A stretch of 34,939 nt of DNA, from IMG/VR virus record IMGVR_UViG_2541047957_000002. The stretch is one strand, 5' to 3'. The notes under the pieces are model-generated. The model searched no databases and was not told the DNA's origin. It saw nothing but the letters and a program-made list of their open reading frames with translations. Below are positions 1-34,652 of the stretch, one piece after another. Origin of the DNA: a virus. Taxonomy: Duplodnaviria > Heunggongvirae > Uroviricota > Caudoviricetes. Every line of letters begins with the position of its first letter. The stretch's first letter is position 1. Both the position numbers and the translations under genes were made by a program.

Positions 1-1032
1 TCAAAAACTTGCTATTGATGTTGGTAGTGTTGCCAGCGGATTAAACCGTAATGCAGTTTCCAGGTGATCCGGTGCCAGATGTGCGTAACGCATAGTCATT
101 TTTATGTCGTGATGTCCGAGGATTTTTTGCAAAGCAAGGATATTTCCACCCGACATCATAAAATGCGCCGCAAACGTATGGCGCAGAACGTGTGTCAGTT
201 GACCGCGAGGGAGCACGATAGACGTTTTTTCCATCACGGATAAAAATTGAAAATAGCAGTCTGTGAAGAAATTGAACCCATCAAGCGCCATGATCTCTTC
301 GTAAAGCTCTTTACTGATAGGGATGCTTCTGTTTTTCTTCCCCTTCGTTCTTACAAAGGTAATTCGGTATTTGGTCACCTGTGAACGAGTAAGATTTACG
401 GCTTCTCGCCAGCGTGCGCCTGTGCTTAAGCATATCTTAACTACCAGTGCTAGAATTGGGTCCTGACGTTTGCAATCAGCCAGTAATTCAACAATCTGCT
501 CATGGGTAAGCCATGCCATCTCTTTTTCTGCGATGGTGAATTTTCGCATGTTCTCCAGTGGGTTCGGATACGACCATTCGCCCAGACGGGATAGTTCGCT
601 AAAAACACTACTTAGATAGCTTTGCTCCAGGTTAATGGTGACCGGGCTTGCTCCTTTCTTCCATTTCTCGCTGAAGTAGATCTCGCCTGTCAGGCGTTTA
701 TCTCGATAGTGGGCAAACATTTTAGAGGTGAGATCGGTTGCAAGAGGATTGCCCAGAGCGTCAACCATCAGCAGCAATTTGTCATAGACATGCTGCCCAG
801 CAGTCAGAGATTTACCATGTAGTTTGAACCATAGCTCAACCACGTCTTTCAGGGTTCGACGATCCACTGATTCGCCCAGCCATGGCTTTGATTCGGTTTC
901 TTCCATAGTGTGACGCTCAAAAGCCAGAGCTTCGCCTTTGGTGGCGAATTGTTTACGCACACGACGCCCACTTCGTCCGGCGGGGTAACATTCGCAAAGC
1001 CATTTCCCTGTGGTGAGTTTTCGTACTGCCAT
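1..1032 (-). CDS. int: Tyrosine integrase (P2 Int family)
   Basis: Six-frame ORF 1..1188; C-terminal catalytic region HVLRHTFAAHF...MTMRYAHL (H-x-x-R ... Y). Start placed at the internal Met (MAVRKLTTGKWLCE...), which matches the P2-family Int N-terminus and has a GGAGGG RBS 8 nt upstream; the ORF could begin earlier at 1188. Confidence 0.88.
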   Translation of the reverse strand: MAVRKLTTGKWLCECYPAGRSGRRVRKQFATKGEALAFERHTMEETESKPWLGESVDRRTLKDVVELWFKLHGKSLTAGQHVYDKLLLMVDALGNPLATDLTSKMFAHYRDKRLTGEIYFSEKWKKGASPVTINLEQSYLSSVFSELSRLGEWSYPNPLENMRKFTIAEKEMAWLTHEQIVELLADCKRQDPILALVVKICLSTGARWREAVNLTRSQVTKYRITFVRTKGKKNRSIPISKELYEEIMALDGFNFFTDCYFQFLSVMEKTSIVLPRGQLTHVLRHTFAAHFMMSGGNILALQKILGHHDIKMTMRYAHLAPDHLETALRFNPLATLPTSIASF

Positions 1033-1063
1033 AAAAAATGCCCTCCAGTAGAGAGCATTTTTA

Positions 1064-1079
1064 CTGTATGTATAACCAG
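1064..1079. promoter_or_regulatory. LexA-box-like palindrome CTGT-N8-CCAG upstream of int (tentative)
   Basis: Sequence TACTGTATGTATAACCAGTG; same CTGT-N8-CCAG form as the uvrB SOS box. The second half-site is imperfect. Confidence 0.25.
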
Positions 1080-1220
1080 TGTCAATGTATGAAATCCTAC
1101 GACCATACATCTCACTGAAGCCATAATGAAGTTGGCTATTCTTTTTGCTATGTGAGCATGTAACTTTTGCGGTTAACCTGCGGCTCATTTTTATTTTAGA
1201 CGCAGATATAAAAGCAAAAG

Positions 1221-1412
1221 TTATCGTGAGTTTTTAGTACAGATTTTTTTGGATTTACTAATAGTTCCATCATTGCAAACGAATTTGCCATCTGAGGTAC
1301 AGTGAGAAACACCTCCCTTTTTCCCTGAGCAGGGATAATTTCTAGCATAGGTAGTTAGTGGGTTTAATAACAAAGAACATGACAAAACCACAAAAAATAC
1401 CTTACCAAGCAT
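1221..1412 (-). CDS. Small secreted 4-Cys basic peptide, hypothetical (candidate lysogeny-expressed moron)
   Basis: 63-aa ORF with N-terminal hydrophobic signal-like segment [23 protein letters not shown] and mature part with 4 Cys and many Lys. Strong RBS GGGAGGAAACT before the ATG; sits 15 bp downstream of the cI stop on the same strand; locally AT-rich. Confidence 0.5.
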
Positions 1413-1427
1413 AGTTTCCTCCCGGTA

Positions 1428-2003
1428 CTATTTAACATACTTGACTGTTAAACTTATAATTTTACCAATTATTTCAATGTCTTCTATCTTACATTCGAAG
1501 GCTCTGTTTCCACCCTCGACGAAGATTCTTCCACCGGGTAAACGAGTAATGTCACGGATCGTTACTTTGCCATCAATACTTATTACCCATTTACCATCAC
1601 GTATATCATCAAATTCTTTATCACAAATAAATTCAGAATTGTTATCTGTGATGACAAAAGGTTTTTTAAACGTAGAGGGTAGAAATCCCTTATCAAAAAT
1701 ATAAAAACCGTCTTCACGCAAGGCACCATCAGATAATACATATTTAGCAACTTCCATAGTATTTGTATTACCTGAAGTTTGCTTTGAACCATGTCCGGTT
1801 GTGAGCCAATTAAGCGAGGTGCCCGTTTCAAGGGCGCACTGGATTACCCATTCTGCTGGGAATGAGTCACGCATGTAGCGTGTGGCGAGTGTACTTTTAG
1901 AGATTCCTAAATGATCGCACAACGCCTGTCGAGTTTTGAATCCATAAGCTTCTACCATGCGCTCTATAGCGCCTCGTCCGCCTTTCTCCAAATTCATGGT
2001 CAC
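1428..2003 (-). CDS. cI: Immunity repressor, phage 186 CI-like (191 aa)
   Basis: Size and position diverging from apl; N-terminal HTH-like segment RQALCDHLGISKSTLATRYMR; 186 CI is about 192 aa. Confidence 0.8.
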   Translation of the reverse strand: MTMNLEKGGRGAIERMVEAYGFKTRQALCDHLGISKSTLATRYMRDSFPAEWVIQCALETGTSLNWLTTGHGSKQTSGNTNTMEVAKYVLSDGALREDGFYIFDKGFLPSTFKKPFVITDNNSEFICDKEFDDIRDGKWVISIDGKVTIRDITRLPGGRIFVEGGNRAFECKIEDIEIIGKIISLTVKYVK

Positions 2004-2122
2004 TCCAAGTGAACTTTTATCTTGACGATTTCATTGTGCGATCGTATGTTTATGGTGTTCACAAAATACAAACGATCCGTATTCGTCCTGATTAATCATC
2101 ATTAAACGAGGAATGTTGCATC
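2004..2122. promoter_or_regulatory. Lysis/lysogeny switch region (candidate pR TTGACG-17-TATGTT at 2022-2050; TTGTG/CACAA inverted repeat 2035-2065 as possible operator)
   Basis: Intergenic region between divergently oriented cI and apl; -35/-10-like hexamers with 17-bp spacing; short inverted repeat overlapping the promoter. Confidence 0.4.
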
Positions 2123-2344
2123 ATGAGACCTAACATTTCAATCACTCTTACCACGCCTCATGTGACTATTGAGCGCTATAGCGAGCTGACAGGGCTGTCC
2201 ATCGATACCATCAATGACATGTTGGCTGACGGACGCCTTATCCGTCACCGTTTGCGCAAAGATAAAAAACGCGAAAAAGTGATGATCAACATAGCAGCCA
2301 TGACCGTTGATGCGCTTTCAGAATGCAATCTAAACCTTAATTAG
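2123..2344 (+). CDS. apl: Apl/Cox-like excisionase and lytic-switch regulator
   Basis: 73-aa ORF directly opposite cI and upstream of cII, with HTH-like segment [21 protein letters not shown]; called by position and size. Confidence 0.55.
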
Positions 2345-2376
2345 TTCGATTCTGAAATACATCAGAGGCATTGACC

Positions 2377-2886
2377 ATGTTTGATTACCAAGTTTCCAAA
2401 CATCCACATTTTGATGAAGCCTGTCGTGCATTTGCACTGCGCCACAATCTGGTGCAACTGGCAGAACGTGCAGGCATGAATGTGCAGATTCTGCGGAACA
2501 AGCTGAACCCAGCTCAGCCTCATCTATTAACCGCACCAGAAATCTGGCTGCTTACCGATCTGACTGAAGATTCAACGCTGGTAGATGGTTTTCTGGCACA
2601 GATTCATTGTCTGCCATGTGTACCGATTAATGAGGTGGCAAAAGAGAAACTGCCACATTACGTCATGAGTGCAACCGCAGAGATCGGGCGTGTTGCTGCA
2701 GGTGCGGTATCTGGCGATGTAAAAACCAGTGCAGGTCGTCGTGATGCTATCAGCAGCATTAACTCTGTAACACGACTGATGGCGTTGGCTGCTGTTTCAT
2801 TGCAGGCCCGTTTACAGGCTAACCCTGCGATGGCGAGTGCAGTTGATACCGTGACTGGCCTCGGTGCTTCATTCGGTTTGCTGTGA
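2377..2886 (+). CDS. cII: CII lysogeny-establishment activator (phage 186 CII-like, 169 aa)
   Basis: Translation [24 protein letters not shown]...[25 protein letters not shown]... closely matches 186 CII as I recall it, and the 169-aa length agrees. The ORF track starts at TTG 2371; ATG 2377 is preferred. Confidence 0.85.
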
Positions 2887-2893
2887 GGTGCTT

Positions 2894-3094
2894 ATGCTGA
2901 CGAAAGAACCATCATTTGCATCGCTGCTGGTAAAACAAAGCCCGGCAATGCACTACGGTCACGGCTGGATAATGGGTAAGGATGGTAAACGCTGGCATCC
3001 GTGCCGTTCACAAGATGAATTGCTGGCAGAACTATCAACGAAAAAACGGGGGAACAAATGGCTATTGAAGGCGCTGCGGCGACTGTTCCATTAA
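2894..3094 (+). CDS. Hypothetical early protein (in the position of 186 fil)
   Basis: ORF right after cII; start ambiguous (GTG 2864 or ATG 2894); no recognisable motif. Confidence 0.35.
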   Translation: MLTKEPSFASLLVKQSPAMHYGHGWIMGKDGKRWHPCRSQDELLAELSTKKRGNKWLLKALRRLFH

Positions 3095-3399
3095 GCCCCG
3101 GTGAACGCCTGAATGGACTTAATCACATTGCGGAGTTAAGGGCGAAAGTATTTGGCCTGAATATTGAGTCAGAGCTTGAGCGGTTTATTAAAGATATGCG
3201 TGATCCACGGGATATCAATAATGAACAAAATAAACGGGCACTGGCTGCCATATTCTTTATGGCAAAAATTCCAGCTGAACGTCATAGCATCAGCATTAAT
3301 GAGCTGACCACTGACGAAAAGCGGGAGCTGATTAAAGCAATGAATCATTTTCGTGCAGTGGTGAGCTTATTTCCCAGACGGCTAACCATGCCGAATTAA
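3058..3399 (+). CDS. Hypothetical early protein (113 aa)
   Basis: ORF with RBS ACGGGGGA before ATG 3058; part of the co-oriented early operon. Confidence 0.45.
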   Translation: MAIEGAAATVPLSPGERLNGLNHIAELRAKVFGLNIESELERFIKDMRDPRDINNEQNKRALAAIFFMAKIPAERHSISINELTTDEKRELIKAMNHFRAVVSLFPRRLTMPN

Positions 3400-3466
3400 C
3401 CAACTAATGAAATTAATGGCGTAAACCCGCCGGGCATCCCTTTATCTAAATTCAGGAGAATTGATT

Positions 3467-3700
3467 ATGCGTAATATTGAAACCCTCACGACTAAAACCG
3501 GACCGGATGATGCAGGGCTTAATATTTTACTGACAGAGGCTCGTCTGGAAGAACGCCGGGCAAGGGCTGAAGCAATGGCAGCTCGCCTTGATAGCCTGGC
3601 GTGTCATATAACATCCCGCCAGCTAAACCACGTCGAAGCGGCAGAACTGCTGCGTGTGAATGCTGAAGCAATCCAGAACGAAGCGCAGGAGATCCACTGA
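3467..3700 (+). CDS. Hypothetical early protein (77 aa)
   Basis: ORF with AGGAG RBS 8 nt before ATG 3467 (track starts at TTG 3461); stop overlaps the next start. Confidence 0.45.
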   Translation: MRNIETLTTKTGPDDAGLNILLTEARLEERRARAEAMAARLDSLACHITSRQLNHVEAAELLRVNAEAIQNEAQEIH

Positions 3701-3927
3701 TGGCTGATGCAATGGATCTCGTACAGCAGCGCGTTGAAGAAGAACGCCAGCGTCATATCCGTGCTGCCCGCGCCAAAACGCCGGGCGTGTCCCGCGTGCT
3801 TTGCATTGAGTGTGAAGCAGCAATTCCGCCAGCACGCCGCCGTGCCATTCCTGGAGTGCAGCTTTGCATTACCTGCCAGGAAATCGCAGAGCTGAAAGGC
3901 AAACATTACAACGGAGGTGCTGTATGA
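3700..3927 (+). CDS. TraR/DksA-family C4 zinc-finger protein
   Basis: Cys pattern CIECEAAIP...(17 aa)...CITCQ (C-x2-C-x17-C-x2-C), typical of phage TraR/DksA-like proteins. Confidence 0.6.
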   Translation: MADAMDLVQQRVEEERQRHIRAARAKTPGVSRVLCIECEAAIPPARRRAIPGVQLCITCQEIAELKGKHYNGGAV

Positions 3928-4781
3928 GCACCATCCTGAAATGGGCGGGAAATAAAACTGCCATTATGTCCGAACTGAAAAAACACCTTCCTGCTGGCCC
4001 GCGACTGGTTGAACCTTTCGCGGGTTCCTGTGCTGTGATGATGGAGACGGATTACCCCAGCTATCTTGTTGCGGATATTAATCCTGATTTAATCAACCTC
4101 TATAAAAAGGTTGCTGCTGATTGTGAGGCGTTTATATCTCGTGCCAGAGCTTTATTTGAGGAAGCAAACAGGGAGGTGGCTTATTACAACATAAGGCAGG
4201 AGTTTAATTACTCCACTGAAATTACTGATTTCATGAAAGCGATATATTTTCTGTATCTCAATCGTCATGGTTACCGTGGGTTATGTCGCTATAACAAGAG
4301 CGGGTATTTCAACATTCCCTACGGTAATTATAAAAATCCGTATTTCCCTGAAAAAGAAATTCGCGCATTTGCAGAGAAAGCCCAGCGGGCAACGTTTATC
4401 TGCGCCAGCTTTGATGAAACGCTGGCGATGTTGAAGGCGGGGGATGTGGTGTATTGCGATCCGCCGTATGACGGTACGTTTTCCGGCTATCACACTGATG
4501 GTTTCACTGAAGATGACCAGTATCACCTGGCATCCGTTCTTGAACATCGGTCATCAGAAGGACATCCGGTCATTGTTTCTAACAGTGACACATCCCTGAT
4601 CCGTTCGCTGTATCGCAATTTTACTCACCACTACATCAAGGCAAAACGCAGCATCGGCGTAGCAGCTGGTGAGAGTAAATCTGCAACAGAAATCATCGCT
4701 GTTTCTGGGGCGCGCTGCTGGGTGGGATTTGATCCTTCGCGTGGCGTGGATAGTTCTGCCGTGTATGGAGTGCGTGCATGA
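3924..4781 (+). CDS. dam: DNA adenine methyltransferase (Dam family)
   Basis: Motif I-like PFAGSCAV and catalytic DPPY ([10 protein letters not shown]). ATG at 3924 overlaps the upstream stop (ATGA), and its stop overlaps the A start. Confidence 0.85.
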
Positions 4782-7192
4782 GCCATGCTGATATGAACAA
4801 CTGCAGCGGCTTTAACGAGGCCGCCGCAGCATTCTCATGGAACAGCCCGAAAAAGGCTATTAACCCTTATCTGGACCCGGCGGAAGTTGCGCCGGTTTCT
4901 GCGCTTTCAAACCTGATCACTCTGTACGCTGCCGATAACGAGCAGGAACAACTGCGCCGCGAGGCACTGAGTGATCAGGTCTGGGAGCGTTATTTCTTTA
5001 ATGCATCCCGTGATCCTGTCCAGCGCGAAATGGAGCAGGATAAGCTCATTAGCCGGGCAAAGCTGGCGCATGAGCAGCAGCGTTTTAATCCGGACATGGT
5101 CATACTGGCGGACGTTAACGCCCAGCCTTCCCATATCAGCAAGCCGCTGATGCAACGTATTGAATACTTCAGCAGCCTGGGCAGGCCAAAGGCTTATTCC
5201 CGCTATTTGCGTGAGACGATTAAGCCATGTCTGGAACGACTGGAGCATGTACGCGACAGTCAGCTATCCACTTCTTTTCGCTTTATGGCAAGCCATGAAG
5301 GGCTGGACGGCCTGCTGATCTTGCCTGAAATGAGTCAGGATCAGGTGAAACGCCTGTCTACTCTTGTCGCTGCGCATATGAGTATGTGTCTTGATGCCGC
5401 TTGTGGTGATTTGTATGCCACCGATGATGTTAAGCCAGAAGAAATCCGCAAGACATGGGAAAAGGTGGCAGCAGAAACCCTGCGACTGGATGTCATACCG
5501 CCTGCGTTTGAGCAACTCCGCCGGAAAAGAAACCGCCGTAAACCCGTACCCTATGAACTCATTCCGGGTTCGCTGGCGCGTATGTTGTGCGCCGACTGGT
5601 GGTATCGGAAATTGTGGAAGATGCGTTGTGAATGGCGGGAAGAGCAGTTGCGTGCTGTTTGCCTGGTCAGCAAAAAAGCATCTCCCTATGTCAGCTATGA
5701 AGCCGTGATGCATAAACGTGAGCAGCGCCGTAAGTCGCTGGAGTTTTTCCGTTCTCATGAACTGGTGAACGAAGACGGCGACACGCTGGACATGGAGGAT
5801 GTGGTAAACGCCAGCAGCAGCAACCCTGCGCATCGCCGCAATGAGATGATGGCCTGTGTTAAAGGTCTGGAGCTTATCGCGGAAATGCGCGGTGACTGCG
5901 CCGTTTTCTACACCATCACCTGTCCGTCACGTTTCCATTCCACGCTAAATAACGGCAGGCCCAACCCGACCTGGACAAATGCGACGGTAAGACAAAGCAG
6001 TGATTATCTGGTCGGCATGTTTGCTGCATTTCGTAAGGCGATGCACAAAGCCGGATTGCGCTGGTATGGCGTGCGGGTGGCTGAGCCGCATCATGACGGC
6101 ACAGTTCACTGGCACCTGTTGTGTTTCATGCGCAAAAAAGACCGCCGCGCCATTACTGCATTGTTGCGTAAGTTTGCTATCCGTGAAGACCGCGAGGAGC
6201 TGGGTAATAACACGGGGCCACGCTTTAAGTCTGAGCTGATAAACCCGTGCAAAGGAACGCCGACTAGCTACATCGCGAAATACATCAGTAAGAACATTGA
6301 CGGGCGTGGTCTGGCTGGCGAGATCAGCAAGGAAACGGGTAAATCTCTGCGTGATAACGCTGAATACGTTAATGCCTGGGCGTCTCTGCATCGTGTTCAG
6401 CAATTCCGCTTCTTTGGCATTCCGGGGCGTCAGGCTTACCGTGAACTGCGATTGCTGGCTGGTCAGGCGGCAAGGCAACAGGGTGACAAAAAAGCAGGTG
6501 CGCCGGTACTGGATAACCCGCGCCTTGATGCCATTCTGGCTGCAGCTGATGCTGGTTGTTTTGCCACCTACATCATGAAGCAGGGCGGCGTACTGGTTCC
6601 CCGTAAATATCACCTCATCAGAACCGCTTATGAAATCAACGAAGAGCCGACCGCCTATGGCGATCACGGCATTCGTATTTATGGCATCTGGTCACCCATT
6701 GCAGAGGGTAAGATCTGCACTCATGCAGTGAAGTGGAAAATGGTTCGTAAGGCCGTTGACGTTCAGGAGGCGGCAGCCGACCAGGGCGCTTGCGCCCCTT
6801 GGACTCGTGGCAATAACTGTCCCCTTGCTGAAAATTTGAACCAACAAGGGAAAGACAAATCAGCTTATGGGGATACCAGAACGGACATTACCCGCATGGA
6901 TGACAAGGAGTTGCACGATTACCTGCACAGTATGAGCAAAAAAGAGCGCCGGGAACTGGCTGCAAGGTTACGCCTGGTGAAACCGAAACGGCGTAAAGAC
7001 TACAAACAGCGAATTACAGACCATCAGCGACAGCAGCTCGTCTATGAGCTGAAGTCCAGAGGATTTGATGGCAGCGAGAAAGAGGTCGGTTTACTCCTTC
7101 GTGGCGGCAGTATTCCGTCAGGAGCAGGCCTGCGTATCTTCTATCGGAACCAGCGTTTGCAGGAAGATGATAAGTGGCGGGATCTGTATTAA
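4778..7192 (+). CDS. A: Rolling-circle replication initiator (P2 gpA family)
   Basis: 804 aa; HUH-type motif [10 protein letters not shown] and tyrosine pair YIAKYISK; position at the end of the early operon. Confidence 0.9.
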
Positions 7193-7286
7193 TTACGCGG
7201 GTTAACAATTCGTGCTCTTAATAATACCAGGCATATCAGGCTGATGAACGTAAAAAAACGTTTTACATCAGTAAGATTATTATATA

Positions 7287-7302
7287 CTGTAAATATAAAC
7301 AG
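7287..7302. promoter_or_regulatory. LexA operator (SOS box) CTGT-N8-ACAG
   Basis: TACTGTAAATATAAACAGTG, a near-consensus LexA box lying in the promoter region about 45 bp upstream of ORF 7345 (strong AGGAGG RBS). Confidence 0.7.
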
Positions 7303-7344
7303 TGGTTATGTATACAGTATTGCTTTGGTGTCATAGGAGGAAAG

Positions 7345-7533
7345 ATGCAGGACTATTTTTTGGAGTCTTTGAAGCTCCAGCGCATTGATTTTTTTCTTAA
7401 GCTTGTAGCGGCTAGTGAGTGTAGTGATGAAGAGAAGGGGCTGGCCCTGCAGTGGGTTTCTGAACTAACAGATGAACTCATGGCAAAAATCAGAACCCAC
7501 GAATACAACCGCTCAATGGATGTCATCAGCTGA
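7345..7533 (+). CDS. Small SOS-operon protein, candidate Tum-like antirepressor
   Basis: 62-aa ORF with AGGAGG RBS immediately downstream of the LexA box; function inferred from position only. Confidence 0.4.
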   Translation: MQDYFLESLKLQRIDFFLKLVAASECSDEEKGLALQWVSELTDELMAKIRTHEYNRSMDVIS

Positions 7534-7543
7534 GGTGACTTTT

Positions 7544-7777
7544 ATGCGCATTGAAATAATGATCGATAAAGAGCAGAAGATTAGCCAGTCTACCCTGGAC
7601 GCTCTGGAGTCCGAGCTTTACCGCAACCTGCGCCCCCTGTATCCCAAAACGGTAATTCGTATCCGCAAAGGTAGCTCTAACGGTGTGGAACTTACCGGAC
7701 TGCAACTGGACGAAGAAAGAAAACAAGTGATGAAAATTATGCAGAAAGTGTGGGAAGACGACAGCTGGCTGCATTAA
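7544..7777 (+). CDS. DinI-family protein
   Basis: MRIEIMIDKEQKISQSTLDALESELYRNL...KIMQKVWEDDSWL resembles E. coli DinI (MRIEV...ETWESADDWF); GAGGTG RBS; second gene behind the LexA box. Confidence 0.75.
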   Translation: MRIEIMIDKEQKISQSTLDALESELYRNLRPLYPKTVIRIRKGSSNGVELTGLQLDEERKQVMKIMQKVWEDDSWLH

Positions 7778-7912
7778 GAAACGTTGCTGGCGTCTGAACT
7801 TGCTTCTGGCGTCAGCAAGGTTGAACAACGAGCCCTTGCGAGGCGTTAGCTCTGTAGTGCATGTCTATGCCGCATGAGATCGCATGATCGTTTGAGGATC
7901 GTTTTTGCTAAG

Positions 7913-7936
7913 GCCCGCCAGAACTGGCGGGCTTTT
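7913..7936 (+). terminator. Rho-independent terminator ending the SOS module
   Basis: Perfect hairpin GCCCGCCAG-aa-CTGGCGGGC followed by TTTTGCG. Confidence 0.6.
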
Positions 7937-7981
7937 GCGTAGATCATGCAGGTGCATGAAAACCACTGCATAAAGCGGGCA

Positions 7982-8000
7982 GGCGTGGCGGGGATACGAG
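7982..8000 (+). other. Candidate cos site (cohesive-end sequence)
   Basis: GGCGTGGCGGGGATACGAG followed by CGCGCGC. The first 13 nt are identical to the 186 cohesive end as I recall it (GGCGTGGCGGGGAAAGCAT) and close to P2 (GGCGAGGCGGGGAAAGCAC); it lies on the expected side of portal gene Q. Confidence 0.5.
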
Positions 8001-8101
8001 CGCGCGCAACAGTGTAACAATCTGGATCTAATGTGATATAGTTACTGTAAATATTATTAACTATTCTTATATGCATTATTAAATATTTTAATGGAGCGTT
8101 T

Positions 8102-9775
8102 ATGGAAAAATATCAAGATGAGGAATATGTAGATGATTTAACTGAGCGTGTTTTTCTCATTAAGCAACAACTGGAAGCGGGAAAACTAAAAATAGCTCAT
8201 CATCTTGTAGAAGGTTTTATTGAAAGTTTTAAAAGAATAAGGCTGCGACAGGATGGTAAAGTTGACCCTTCTACTGTTGATGGCAGAATAAGGGCTATGG
8301 GAGCAGCGGTTAATCACTTTTTAGAAAGAGAAGATATAAAAAACAAATACTCTATTCAGGACTTGCAAAGTTCTTACTTTAATATTCTTTTTAGTAATTT
8401 TGGCGAGTTGTTTTATCTGATGAAAAAAACTAATGCAACGCCACATAAAGCATCAAGTTTTTTTTCTCAACAAGAAGAATATGTTAAGCAAATAGAAGAT
8501 ATTTTTCCTGAGTTATATAATCAGGTAATAGAGTTTTGGCAGGTAACATCCGATATTGGTGTAATACATTTGCAGGATGGTTCTCAGTTTAAAGCTAATT
8601 TTTCTGGTGACTTATTTCCTGCATTTGATGAGAATGCTGTCTCTATTGCAGGGTTGTATGTTGATACTATTTCACTTCCATGTCCTATATTAAGAGTCGG
8701 TCGTCTCTATGAAAAGTCAGATAAGGCTGAGTTTACAAGGATACTTCTGAAGCATGTCCTAACATGTATGACATATAAAGAAGTAGCGCTTGAAGATATA
8801 GAGCCAGCAATAGTATTAATTTTGCCGGATAGAAGAGATTTTGAAACTGAGAGCAAAAAAAATTTGATGAGTTTTTGTGAGCCTTATGCTCTGACTCATG
8901 CGCAATATCTCTATGATCGACGGTTCGAAAGCTACGATGAACTTCGAGATTTTAGTTATTCGATGAATGATATTGATGCTGTTCTTAAAAATATTAAGAG
9001 AGCAGATAGACTTATTTTTGATACAGCATGGGGGCTAAATCCAAAAACTCAATTAGAAAAACTACTATCTGATAAAAAAAGAATATCACGTAATGTTGTT
9101 GGTGATCATGCTGGAATGGAGGTTTTCCTTTCCTGCATTGGAAGAATGCCGCAAGCCTATTCAGCAAAATGTAATGCACAAGAACTTGGTAGTACTCCAT
9201 ATATAAATGCAGACACATCTTGGCTCTATTATACTTGGCTTATTGAGTACGAATCTCTTAATTTTGATGTCAATGATATTGAACTAAAAAATTTGCATAT
9301 GGTTCATGCGTTATCTGCTGGTATGCAAGATGGTTTTTCATGGTTAGGAAATGTACCGGTCAATAAAATAATTGAGTTGAGACGTAACAAATTGATGGAG
9401 GATGTAAGATCCATCTTATCAAATGGTGTTGACTCTTTAATCAATTCTTCGGCAGAGAGCTTTTCGAGGACAACGCAAAAAGTAATTGATAATGTAGACC
9501 GGGCTTTTATTGAACATCAAAGGATTCTTGCAAAAGCCCAAAAAGAGAAATTGAGAATTTACGGACTAGATGTCCTACCATGTATCGCAAATGGTGCTAT
9601 AGCAATTGCTGGAGCGCTGACTGGCAATACTACTTTAACGGCGTTAAGTGCAGGCCTTGGAGTAATAGGTATTCCGAGTATTAGTGATATCAAATCTAAA
9701 TTTAAGCAGAGGCAAGAGAAGCTTGATGCCTATCAACGTTCTGTTACAGGTATACTCTTTAGCCATAAATCTTAA
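8102..9775 (+). CDS. AT-rich orphan protein (557 aa), unknown function; candidate anti-phage/abortive-infection cargo with C-terminal hydrophobic Gly/Ala-rich segment
   Basis: Long uninterrupted ORF in a markedly AT-rich block (first 60 nt are 30% GC by count; flanking phage genes look far more GC-rich by eye) with RBS GGAG and its own downstream hairpin. C-terminal segment LDVLPCIANGAIAIAGALTGNTTLTALSAGLGVIGIPSI (about 9565-9685) looks like a membrane or glycine-zipper element. No Walker A or other motif recognised. Confidence 0.75.
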   Translation: MEKYQDEEYVDDLTERVFLIKQQLEAGKLKIAHHLVEGFIESFKRIRLRQDGKVDPSTVDGRIRAMGAAVNHFLEREDIKNKYSIQDLQSSYFNILFSNFGELFYLMKKTNATPHKASSFFSQQEEYVKQIEDIFPELYNQVIEFWQVTSDIGVIHLQDGSQFKANFSGDLFPAFDENAVSIAGLYVDTISLPCPILRVGRLYEKSDKAEFTRILLKHVLTCMTYKEVALEDIEPAIVLILPDRRDFETESKKNLMSFCEPYALTHAQYLYDRRFESYDELRDFSYSMNDIDAVLKNIKRADRLIFDTAWGLNPKTQLEKLLSDKKRISRNVVGDHAGMEVFLSCIGRMPQAYSAKCNAQELGSTPYINADTSWLYYTWLIEYESLNFDVNDIELKNLHMVHALSAGMQDGFSWLGNVPVNKIIELRRNKLMEDVRSILSNGVDSLINSSAESFSRTTQKVIDNVDRAFIEHQRILAKAQKEKLRIYGLDVLPCIANGAIAIAGALTGNTTLTALSAGLGVIGIPSISDIKSKFKQRQEKLDAYQRSVTGILFSHKS

Positions 9776-32319: not shown

Positions 32320-34005
32320 TTATCCTAATCCTGGCCATACCATGACGATGATTGTCCCTGCCAGCGTCAGCAGGACGTTGGCGATTGCGTAGGTGCCCGC
32401 ATAGCCCAGCGCAGGGATGTTACTGCGAGCTGTATCACTGATGATCTCCATTGCCGGCGCGCAGGTGCGTGCGCCCATCATTGCGCCGAACAACAGTGCG
32501 CGGTTCATTCGCAATACATAAGCACCGAACAAGAAACAGATAACCACGGGCACAAGACTGACAATTAATCCGGCAATCAACATCTGACCGCCAATCGCGC
32601 CCAGGCCGTTATTAATACCGCTACCGGCGCTCAGACCAACGCCTGCCATAAACACCATCAAGCCGAACTCTTTCACCATGCTTAATGCACCTTGCGGAAT
32701 GTAACCGAAGGTCGGGTGGTTAGCACGCATAAAGCCCAGCATAATTCCGGCGAATAACAACCCGGCAGCGTTCCCCATGCCGAAACTGAATGTGCTGAAC
32801 TGGAAGGTGATCATCCCGATCATCAGCCCAATAACAAAGAAGGCGCAAAATGCCAGCAGGTCAGTGACCTGGCTGTGAATCGAGATAAAGCCGATGCGAT
32901 CGGCGATGGTTTTTACGCGACGGGCATCACCGCTGACTTGTAAAACGTCACCTTTGTTAAGCACGACGTTGTCATCTATCGGCATCTCAATCTGGCTACG
33001 AATGACGCGGTTAAGGAAGCAACCGTGATCGGTCAACTTCAGTTGTGCGAGACGTTTACCTACAGCGTTATGGTTTTTAACGACCACTTCTTCAGTGACG
33101 ATACGCATGTCGAGAAGGTCACGATCGAAAACTTCTTTACCGTTACGGAAGCTGGGATCGAGTCGGGCATGGGCGTCGGGATAGCCTACCAACGCTATTT
33201 CATCGCCCATTTGTAGCACGGCATCACCGTCTGGATTTGCCAGAATCCCGTTACGTCGAATACGTTCAATGTAGCAGCCGGTTTGTCGATAAATACCCAG
33301 TTCACGCAGATTTTTGCCGTCGGTCCAGGCCACCAGCTCCGGGCCGACGCGATAGGCGCGGATCACCGGTAAATAAACCTTACGGTTGGCATCAGTGTCC
33401 AGGCCACGTTCGCGGGCGATTTGCTGGGCGCTGGTCTGTAAGTCCTGATGCTGCAATTTCGGCAAGTAACGCGCACCAACAATCAAACTCACCAGACCGA
33501 TTAAATAGGTTAAGGCATACCCGAGGCTCAGATTATCCAGTGCCAGTGAGAGCTGCCTGCTTTCCATGCCGGAATGACGCAGTGTATCGCCAGCACCGAC
33601 CAGAACCGGTGTCGACGTCATAGAGCCTGCTAACATACCGGCCGTCAGGCCAATATCCCAGCCAAACAGCTTACCTAACCCTAAGGCGATCACCAGCGCA
33701 CTGCCAACCATCACCAGTGCTAACATTAGGTAATTTTTCCCATCGCGAAAAAAAATGGAAAAAAAGTTCGGTCCGGCTTCGACCCCGACGCAGAAAATAA
33801 ACAGCATAAAGCCAAGATTAAGCGCATCGGTGTTAATGCTGAAATGTTGTTGGCCTAATAACAGCGATACGACTAAAACGCCAATGGAATTACCCAGTTG
33901 GATCGAACCAAGTCGTAACTTTCCGAGACATAGCCCAAGCGCGAGGACCACAAATAATAACAGAATGTAATTCCCATTTAACAATTCGGCGACGTTTATA
34001 TTCAC
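32320..34005 (-). CDS. ybjL: Putative transporter YbjL (AAE family), host gene
   Basis: 561-aa translation [29 protein letters not shown]... recognised as E. coli YbjL; multiple TM segments. Confidence 0.9.
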
Positions 34006-34274
34006 GGAGGCTAACTTCTTGTTTACTAGTAAGCTGTTGAAAGAAATGGTAATTTACGATAATGTTTTTTACCAGAATTCAGGGCGCAGATTCATTCAGC
34101 GCACCTAAACGATAGTAAAGTAACAATATATTTTACTAGTGTAATCACATTAGGTATCAACGGCTATATGAATTGCGTTGGCCTATATTAGCATGGAATG
34201 CGAAGCGGCTTTATCTTACTGAACGCCACACTGGCGAAAAATGTGTTCGATAGACGCAGTGTCAGGAGGAACGA

Positions 34275-34652
34275 GTGAAACATAAACAACGTTGGGCGGG
34301 GGCAATCTGCTGTTTTGTCCTCTTCATTGTGGTGTGCCTTTTTCTGGCGACGCACATGAAAGGCGCTTTTCGGGCTGCCGGGCATCCTGAAATCGGCTTG
34401 CTATTTTTCATTCTTCCTGGAGCAGTCGCCAGCTTCTTTTCACAGCGTAGAGAAGTCCTGAAACCTCTGTTTGGCGCAATGCTGGCGGCACCCTGTTCGA
34501 TGCTCATTATGCGGCTGTTTTTTTCACCGACGCGCTCATTCTGGCAAGAGCTGGCATGGTTACTAAGCGCGGTGTTCTGGTGTGCGCTGGGGGCACTGTG
34601 TTTCTTATTTATCAGTAGTTTGTTTAAACCACAGCACAGAAAAAATCAGTAA
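34275..34652 (+). CDS. ybjM: Inner membrane protein YbjM, host gene
   Basis: 125 aa, GTG start with AGGAGG RBS; hydrophobic; the conserved E. coli neighbour of ybjL and grxA. Confidence 0.8.
   Translation: MKHKQRWAGAICCFVLFIVVCLFLATHMKGAFRAAGHPEIGLLFFILPGAVASFFSQRREVLKPLFGAMLAAPCSMLIMRLFFSPTRSFWQELAWLLSAVFWCALGALCFLFISSLFKPQHRKNQ

Follow-up and report, generated by a model that had tools for sequence, protein, structure and literature searches.

Why would a temperate phage whose hosts already make Dam encode a DNA adenine methyltransferase of its own, and keep the gene directly in front of its replication initiator gene? We address this question for a gene, dam, in a 34,939-nucleotide stretch of DNA (IMG/VR virus record IMGVR_UViG_2541047957_000002, Caudoviricetes), referred to below as the window. 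Judged by sequence comparison, the window holds a Felsduovirus-type prophage (the type of Fels-2, SopEPhi, RE-2010 and the retron-Ec67 prophage) of the P2 family in E. coli, the host being identified from a 100% match of dam and the ybjL/ybjM flank. The gene occupies positions 3924 to 4781 on the plus strand (858 nt, 285 amino acids; ATG 3924-3926, TGA 4779-4781). Because all known hosts are already Dam-positive, the selective benefit of a second dam is not obvious. We assign a probability of roughly 0.85 to the reading that dam encodes a functional orphan Dam-family methyltransferase, most likely a GATC N6-adenine methyltransferase, that would be silent in the lysogen, made with the initiator protein gpA in lytic growth, and used to supplement host Dam.

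Family assignment, selection and orphan status

The dam product matches the Pfam D12-class N6-adenine methyltransferase family PF02086 over the full model (positions 1-253 of 253; E 3.9e-77; 259.8 bits against a cutoff of 22), and its score of 322.8 bits against NCBIfam TIGR00571 'dam' lies above that model's cutoff of 114.85. The closest solved structure is that of E. coli Dam (2g1p, E 2e-73), followed by DpnM and T4 Dam, and the best PADLOC model is 'orphan methyltransferase' (370 bits). Taken as profile and structure scores, these matches are far beyond chance, and they bear out the Dam-family membership that the initial annotation had read from the letters and proposed to check by homology search. 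The product scores 288.8 bits against the host-Dam equivalog NF008152 / PRK10904, under its cutoff of 441, and thus falls outside the group that this model defines as host Dam orthologs.

The motifs follow the alpha-type order, with FAGS at residues 32-35, the recognition segment at residues 114-137 and DPPY at residues 179-182. On the plus strand, motif I, with the AdoMet-binding segment EPFAGS (residues 30-35), is encoded at 4011 to 4028, as placed by the translation and by alignment to E. coli Dam (EcoDam); the DNA-recognition segment lies at 4263 to 4334, delimited by the same alignment and by what is conserved across the clade and other GATC methylases; and the catalytic motif IV, whose DPPY had been named earlier as the mark of this enzyme, is read at 4458 to 4469 from the translation, the EcoDam alignment and a comparison of phage Dam proteins. 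The phage product is 47% identical to E. coli K-12 Dam over 269 aligned residues, and it shares with EcoDam (PDB 2G1P) the fold family, the motif order, DPPY and residues K9, Y119, L122, R124, P134 and Y138 (EcoDam numbering). It differs in an N120R replacement, a deletion of five residues after DPPY and another C-terminal tail. The genomic settings differ as well: in MG1655, host dam lies in the order damX-dam-rpe, whereas the phage gene is part of a prophage early operon.

Substitution patterns point to a protein that is in use. The dN/dS ratio of dam is 0.16 relative to the copy in RE-2010 and 0.14 relative to the copy in SopEPhi, which is 73% identical in amino acid sequence. A ratio of about 0.15 implies purifying selection on the Dam protein sequence and not merely on the reading frame, and in these sequence comparisons it shows that dam is maintained by selection. 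An alternative TTG start at 3864 was rejected; it lacks a Shine-Dalgarno (SD) signal and is unused in the RE-2010, SopEPhi and RefSeq annotations, all of which give 858 nt. At 46.9%, the G+C content of dam falls short of the 56.6% and 53.0% of its neighbours, which fits acquisition as a cassette but proves nothing.

The genes flanking dam are a TraR/DksA zinc-finger gene and the gene for gpA, neither of which is a nuclease partner. A Pfam and PADLOC scan that covered the genes flanking dam and two cargo open reading frames (ORFs) found no cognate restriction endonuclease beside dam of the kind seen in type II systems such as DpnII or MboI, and the methylase motif [DNS]PP[YFW] occurs in no plausible ORF of the window other than as the DPPY of dam. 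Since no restriction partner is present in the flanks, dam is, by its gene neighbourhood, an orphan methylase.

Predicted target specificity

The residues through which EcoDam recognizes its target have been described (PMC4417163): R124 reads the fourth base pair of GATC, L122 and P134 read the third, K9 and Y138 read the first, Y119 intercalates, and N120 contacts the orphaned thymine. In our alignment, K6, Y117, L120, R122, P132 and Y136 of the phage protein correspond to K9, Y119, L122, R124, P134 and Y138 of EcoDam, and all are identical. The sole DNA-contact residue that has changed is N120, which is replaced by Arg118.

Conservation within the clade follows the same pattern. In an alignment of 118 sequences, comprising the dam product and 117 full-length homologs of 71-100% identity, K9, Y119, R124 and Y138 (EcoDam numbering) are invariant, as are F35 and G37 of motif I. 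L122 is kept in 115 and P134 in 117 of the 118 sequences, and DPPY is invariant or nearly so. The Arg at the N120 position is likewise fixed (118/118).

We also compared the protein with more distant phage enzymes, namely P1 Dmt (annotated as a GATC methylase), a T4-type Dam and three other P2-family Dam proteins. These proteins (for P1 Dmt, its Dam domain) are 22-52% identical to the dam product, all belong to the D12 class, and all have DPPY and the equivalent of R124. The equivalent of P134 is present in the T4-type Dam and in the rest of the set, with Gly in P1 Dmt alone. The N120 position is variable, with Ser in the T4-type Dam, and the length of the loop after DPPY varies among the GATC enzymes compared. 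Within this set, the combination of N120R and a five-residue deletion directly after DPPY is peculiar to the Felsduovirus Dam subclade; unlike it, the Dam proteins of Yersinia phage vB_YenM_42.18, Klebsiella phage Kp4861-1 and Salmonella phage SI7 have Asn at the N120 position and a longer loop after DPPY.

Because the residues with which EcoDam reads GATC are identical in the phage protein and conserved in its clade, we strongly predict that the dam product is most likely a GATC methylase, with high but incomplete confidence. Counted against this explanation are the score under the host-Dam equivalog cutoff and the changes beside functional sites, that is, N120R and the five-residue deletion.

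Operon context and expected expression

The dam gene is the third member of an unbroken chain of four genes linked by overlapping stop and start codons, all on the plus strand. The chain begins with a DUF2732 gene (3467-3700; PF10809, 1.9e-29), whose coordinates match those in RE-2010 and RefSeq and which meets the next gene in a TGATG junction. It continues with the TraR/DksA-type C4 zinc-finger gene (3700-3927; PF01258, 1.2e-10; TIGR02419, 64.3 bits, above cutoff) and dam, and it ends with the replication initiator gene A, which encodes the rolling-circle nickase (4778-7192; Phage_GPA, PF05840, 5.4e-127). Further upstream of the DUF2732 gene are a DUF5347 gene, Fil, CII, an Apl-sized ORF and a divergent gene for a CI-type immunity repressor (1428-2003, minus strand; PF07022 and PF16452; 32% identity to 186 CI). 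As read from these assignments, the layout is that of a 186-style switch followed by an early lytic operon, and the profile matches of the zinc-finger and gpA neighbours uphold the earlier placement of dam among the early lytic and replication genes.

A putative early promoter pR (TTGACG-17-TATGTT, 2022-2050, plus strand) agrees with the consensus at 9 of 12 positions and sits between cI and the Apl-like gene, as pR does in 186. A consensus scan detected no promoter-like site on the plus strand between pR and position 8014, and none internal for dam. One antisense consensus match inside dam (4354-4327) was dismissed as chance level, with 5 matches found against 8.0 expected. There is no convincing hairpin before the DUF2732 gene that would correspond to the tR1 terminator of 186 (z = 0.01), and none was found in a terminator scan. 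Because pR is the only promoter-like site upstream on the plus strand, we infer that dam is silent in the lysogen through CI repression of pR and that induction or infection leads to its transcription along with the replication genes. Given that dam belongs to a CI-repressed early operon and has no promoter-like site of its own, an effect of the phage Dam on host methylation during lysogeny is unlikely.

The junctions suggest that the genes are also linked in translation. The TGA of the upstream ORF (3700-3927) lies at 3925-3927 and overlaps the dam start in an ATGA (3924-3927), and the ATG of the downstream ORF (4778-7192) lies at 4778-4780 and overlaps the dam stop in a second ATGA (4778-4781). 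Both overlaps, which had been proposed from the initial reading, are exact to the base. The dam ATG is preceded at a distance of 6 nt by a GGAGG (3913-3917), and the gene A start at 8 nt by a GGAG (4766-4769); as read from the plus strand, the two signals with their overlaps span 3913-3927 and 4766-4781. Overlapping stop and start codons with SD sequences inside the upstream ORFs are the structural arrangement required for translational coupling. In addition, a hairpin is predicted at the dam start, in which the SD pairs with dam codons 2-4 and the AUG is in the loop (z = -3.4 relative to shuffled sequences), and in the predicted fold at the A start, the 3' end of dam contributes to a stem in which the AUG of A is base-paired (z = -1.96). 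A precedent is given by the record of phage 186 (NC_001317), according to which A seems to be translated only when translation of the gene before it (orf84) runs to the end. The last gene before A overlaps the start of A in orf84-A of 186 and orf83-A of P2 just as in dam-A, although the gene in this position is unrelated to dam, being a PAPS-reductase domain protein in 186 and DUF5405 in P2. Based on the ATGA overlaps, the predicted hairpins and the 186 precedent, coupling of the zinc-finger gene, dam and A in translation is likely.

Proposed role and distribution of GATC sites

We propose that CI repression of pR would keep dam off in the lysogen and that, once lytic growth starts, Dam would be made together with gpA by translational coupling. 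It is generally understood that host Dam is limiting during fast phage replication, and the proposed benefit rests on this: the phage enzyme would add to the host activity and bring all 119 GATC sites of each fast-replicating genome to full methylation ahead of packaging. Progeny DNA in this state may then be shielded, in the next host, from restriction enzymes of the MboI/DpnII type, which cut GATC and are sensitive to methylation, and it may also escape the action of MutH and SeqA on hemimethylated or unmethylated DNA.

The prophage shows no avoidance of GATC; its 119 sites give an observed/expected ratio of 0.74, a value like those of other 4-mer palindromes. The homolog of the ori nick site (~6789-6820) lacks GATC. 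This homolog of the P2/186 site was mapped from the P2 and 186 annotations; it lies inside gene A (approximate coordinates) and reads CTTGGACTCGTGGCAATAACTGT here, compared to TCGGAGTCCTGTCAATAACTGT in P2. Five GATC sites occur within 150 nt of intergenic DNA at 7878-8025, and at 7878-7897 three GATC are found in 25 nt inside a GATCGTTT direct repeat, beside a terminator-like hairpin (~7912-7937). Clustering was rejected as a sign of regulation by Dam, the densest cluster not being significant relative to random placement (P 0.17-0.39). An inverted repeat at 2040-2057 / 2060-2077, with 18-nt arms that are 78% complementary and 2 nt apart, has a GATC at both outer ends. This 38-bp palindrome (2040-2077) extends over the putative -10 of pR, and in this immunity type it probably serves as the operator for CI.

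Alternative explanations

It is unlikely, in our estimation, that the enzyme is active with a relaxed or different specificity, recognizing GATC together with near-cognate sites or another short motif and protecting phage DNA against restriction systems that host Dam leaves uncovered. Such a change would be in keeping with the score under the host-Dam equivalog cutoff and with the fixation, beside functional residues in the Felsduovirus clade, of N120R (118/118) and the five-residue deletion. Two published cases point in the same direction: plasmid-expressed prophage dam homologs methylated ATC/GAT besides GATC (PMC4417163), and for a D12 methylase, perhaps unrelated to dam, of an E. coli ST131 prophage, no recognition site was reported to be known among homologs with more than 65% identity (PMC4659465). 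However, every residue with which EcoDam makes base-specific contacts is conserved in the phage product, and the one replaced residue touches the orphaned thymine and does not discriminate sequence, with the T4-type Dam having Ser there. The length of the loop after DPPY, as noted, varies among GATC enzymes too, and GATC specificity is the reading that we prefer.

A mainly regulatory function, in which over-methylation of phage or host GATC sites would adjust phage gene expression or the choice between lysis and lysogeny once the prophage is induced, is very improbable as the principal role, although it is compatible with supplementation of host Dam. A possible target is the pair of GATC sites that bound the palindrome at the putative pR -10, and excision of SopEPhi is reportedly favoured by Dam methylation (review, PMC7380047). 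Against this, the immunity region is mosaic and unlinked to dam: RE-2010 has the same dam with a different small repressor, and the window CI shares only 32% identity with 186 CI. The ori nick site without GATC and the lack of significant GATC clustering elsewhere argue in the same direction. We consider it extremely unlikely that the methylase activity is irrelevant or lost and that the ORF is kept as a translated spacer that opens the ribosome-binding site of gene A. The dependence of A translation on orf84 in the 186 record, the occurrence of unrelated genes in this slot in different P2 relatives, and the pairing of the A AUG in the predicted fold would all fit such a spacer, but a mere spacer would not conserve catalytic and recognition residues, which are invariant or nearly so among the homologs of 71-100% identity, and dN/dS is about 0.15 over the whole of dam. 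A functional Dam made alongside gpA remains the explanation that we favour.

Relatives and prevalence

The 1.9 kb around dam are 96-98% identical in nucleotide sequence to Salmonella phage RE-2010 (Felsduovirus), Klebsiella phage 4LV2017, dozens of further Klebsiella prophage isolates and Escherichia phage Cartapus. RE-2010 matches at 97.8% over 1.9 kb, with an identical gene order of DUF2732, TraR-like gene, dam and A, which identifies the operon as Felsduovirus-type. The dam counterpart in RE-2010 is ELphiS00010. In SopEPhi, orf8 occupies the same slot in the same gene order and is annotated as 'similar to retron EC67 DNA adenine methylase' (73% amino acid identity). In the records of annotated relatives, the gene that separates a zinc-finger/DksA-like gene from the replication gene is called as a DNA adenine methylase, and this gene order is also tabulated in a paper on Klebsiella kp52145 (PMC7826664). 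The same paper notes that the 34-kb retron-Ec67 element, later recognised as a 186-related prophage, encodes a Dam methylase (PMC7826664). The exact protein is listed at NCBI as 'MULTISPECIES: DNA adenine methylase [Enterobacteriaceae]' from 159 contigs, and its 90% cluster contains 4038 member sequences, one of which is named after the retron Ec67 enzyme. A copy of dam with 100% identity is found on an E. coli chromosome, and E. coli F829 has an identical copy that RefSeq annotates as DNA adenine methylase. RefSeq WP_021578436.1, the Dam of a Felsduovirus-type prophage, is among the closest known relatives.

In the Felsduovirus-type relatives (RE-2010, SopEPhi, 4LV2017 and WP_021578436.1), the 858-nt length, the gene order and the overlaps are the same, and dam itself shows no substantive difference. 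The window differs from RE-2010 in its immunity module, which is a 186-type CI/Apl/CII module here and has a small repressor there, and in the cargo downstream of A. A possible correspondence of dam to M.EcoMIV of E. coli EC958 (PMC4659465) was dropped, since the one P2-family prophage in the EC958 regions examined was of Xuanwuvirus type and lacked dam.

Among 5426 complete E. coli genomes, dam was present in 1239 and the A allele of this lineage in 1289, compared to 1724 genomes with a P2-type A (with DUF5405 upstream) and 125 with a 186-type A. Similarly, in a phage collection, 56 records had a Dam with at least 60% identity and 57 had a gpA with at least 80%. The gene is already known, and records of this abundant P2-family prophage lineage routinely list it. 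Its presence by itself matters little: dam is standard in this type of prophage, which is among the commonest in E. coli, Salmonella and Klebsiella. A second dam that would normally be silent is thereby carried by about 23% of the complete E. coli genomes, and it is relevant to the interpretation of dam-mutant phenotypes after prophage induction and of methylomes of induced cultures.

The slot upstream of gene A in the P2 family

In P2, Orf83 (DUF5405) lies between the zinc-finger gene and A, and in the 186 record (3891-5748 of the record examined) the slot contains an RNase_T-type exonuclease, DUF5405 and a PAPS-reductase-domain protein. According to a published comparison, P2 has no methylase gene (PMC3091744). 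The earlier suggestion that dam is accessory relative to P2 agrees with both observations, and dam is not a core gene of all P2/186 relatives, as the slots of P2 and 186 hold other genes. The gene is accessory to the P2 family and nearly fixed in the Felsduovirus-type early operon.

Distant D12 Dam genes (39-52% identity) are found just upstream of A in phages of three other genera, Yersinia phage vB_YenM_42.18, Klebsiella phage Kp4861-1 and Salmonella phage SI7, and in SI7 (878-3008) a C5-cytosine methylase lies between Dam and A. No Dam was found upstream of A when the slot was examined in Xuanwuvirus, phiO18P, Kappa and a Mannheimia phage; the 'putative DNA methyltransferase' with which Vibrio phage Kappa is annotated near rep was not counted, as it gave no Pfam match to a methylase. 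The slot thus holds Dam in at least four genera, Dam with a C5 methylase in SI7, and an exonuclease with a PAPS-reductase-domain protein in 186. Enzymes that modify DNA recur directly ahead of the replication gene in the P2 family. A broader hypothesis, which we regard as tentative and rather doubtful, is that the slot between the TraR-like gene and A is a family-wide cargo site of Peduoviridae for DNA-modification or counter-restriction genes coupled to the initiator, and that the Felsduovirus Dam subclade (N120R, five-residue deletion) has altered properties. These could be relaxed specificity or hyperactivity on replication intermediates, and if this were true, the protection given by Felsduovirus Dam would extend beyond GATC-cutting enzymes.

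In vB_YenM_42.18 (NC_070913), the intact Dam ORF of 279 amino acids (2965-3804; 52% identity) lies directly upstream of gpA. The public record leaves this ORF unannotated and calls two tiny hypothetical ORFs there.

Other features of the window

Downstream of A, a LexA-box-like CTGTAAATATAAACAG precedes a 62-aa ORF (7345-7533) and a DinI-family ORF (~7544-7777), and this arrangement (7285-7777) resembles the SOS-controlled tum operon of 186. An ORF of 557 amino acids (8102-9775, plus strand) lies in the slot downstream of the A and DinI genes, where P2 carries tin/old. It is AT-rich (35% G+C) and has no Pfam match and a weak PADLOC match to DitB (3.4e-9). In the corresponding place the RE-2010 annotation names an 'abortive infection protein', and the ORF is missing from the E. 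coli F829 prophage, which is identical in other respects. We consider the ORF candidate anti-phage defence cargo. Between the integrase and CI genes, a 63-aa ORF (1221-1412, minus strand) has a hydrophobic, signal-peptide-like N-terminus and several cysteines; it is listed as a RefSeq hypothetical protein in a related prophage and could act in lysogenic conversion. The right end of the window (32320-34652) is host chromosome, with a YbjL-type Asp-Al_Ex/TrkA_C transporter gene on the minus strand and ybjM, which places the end of the prophage before ~32.3 kb.
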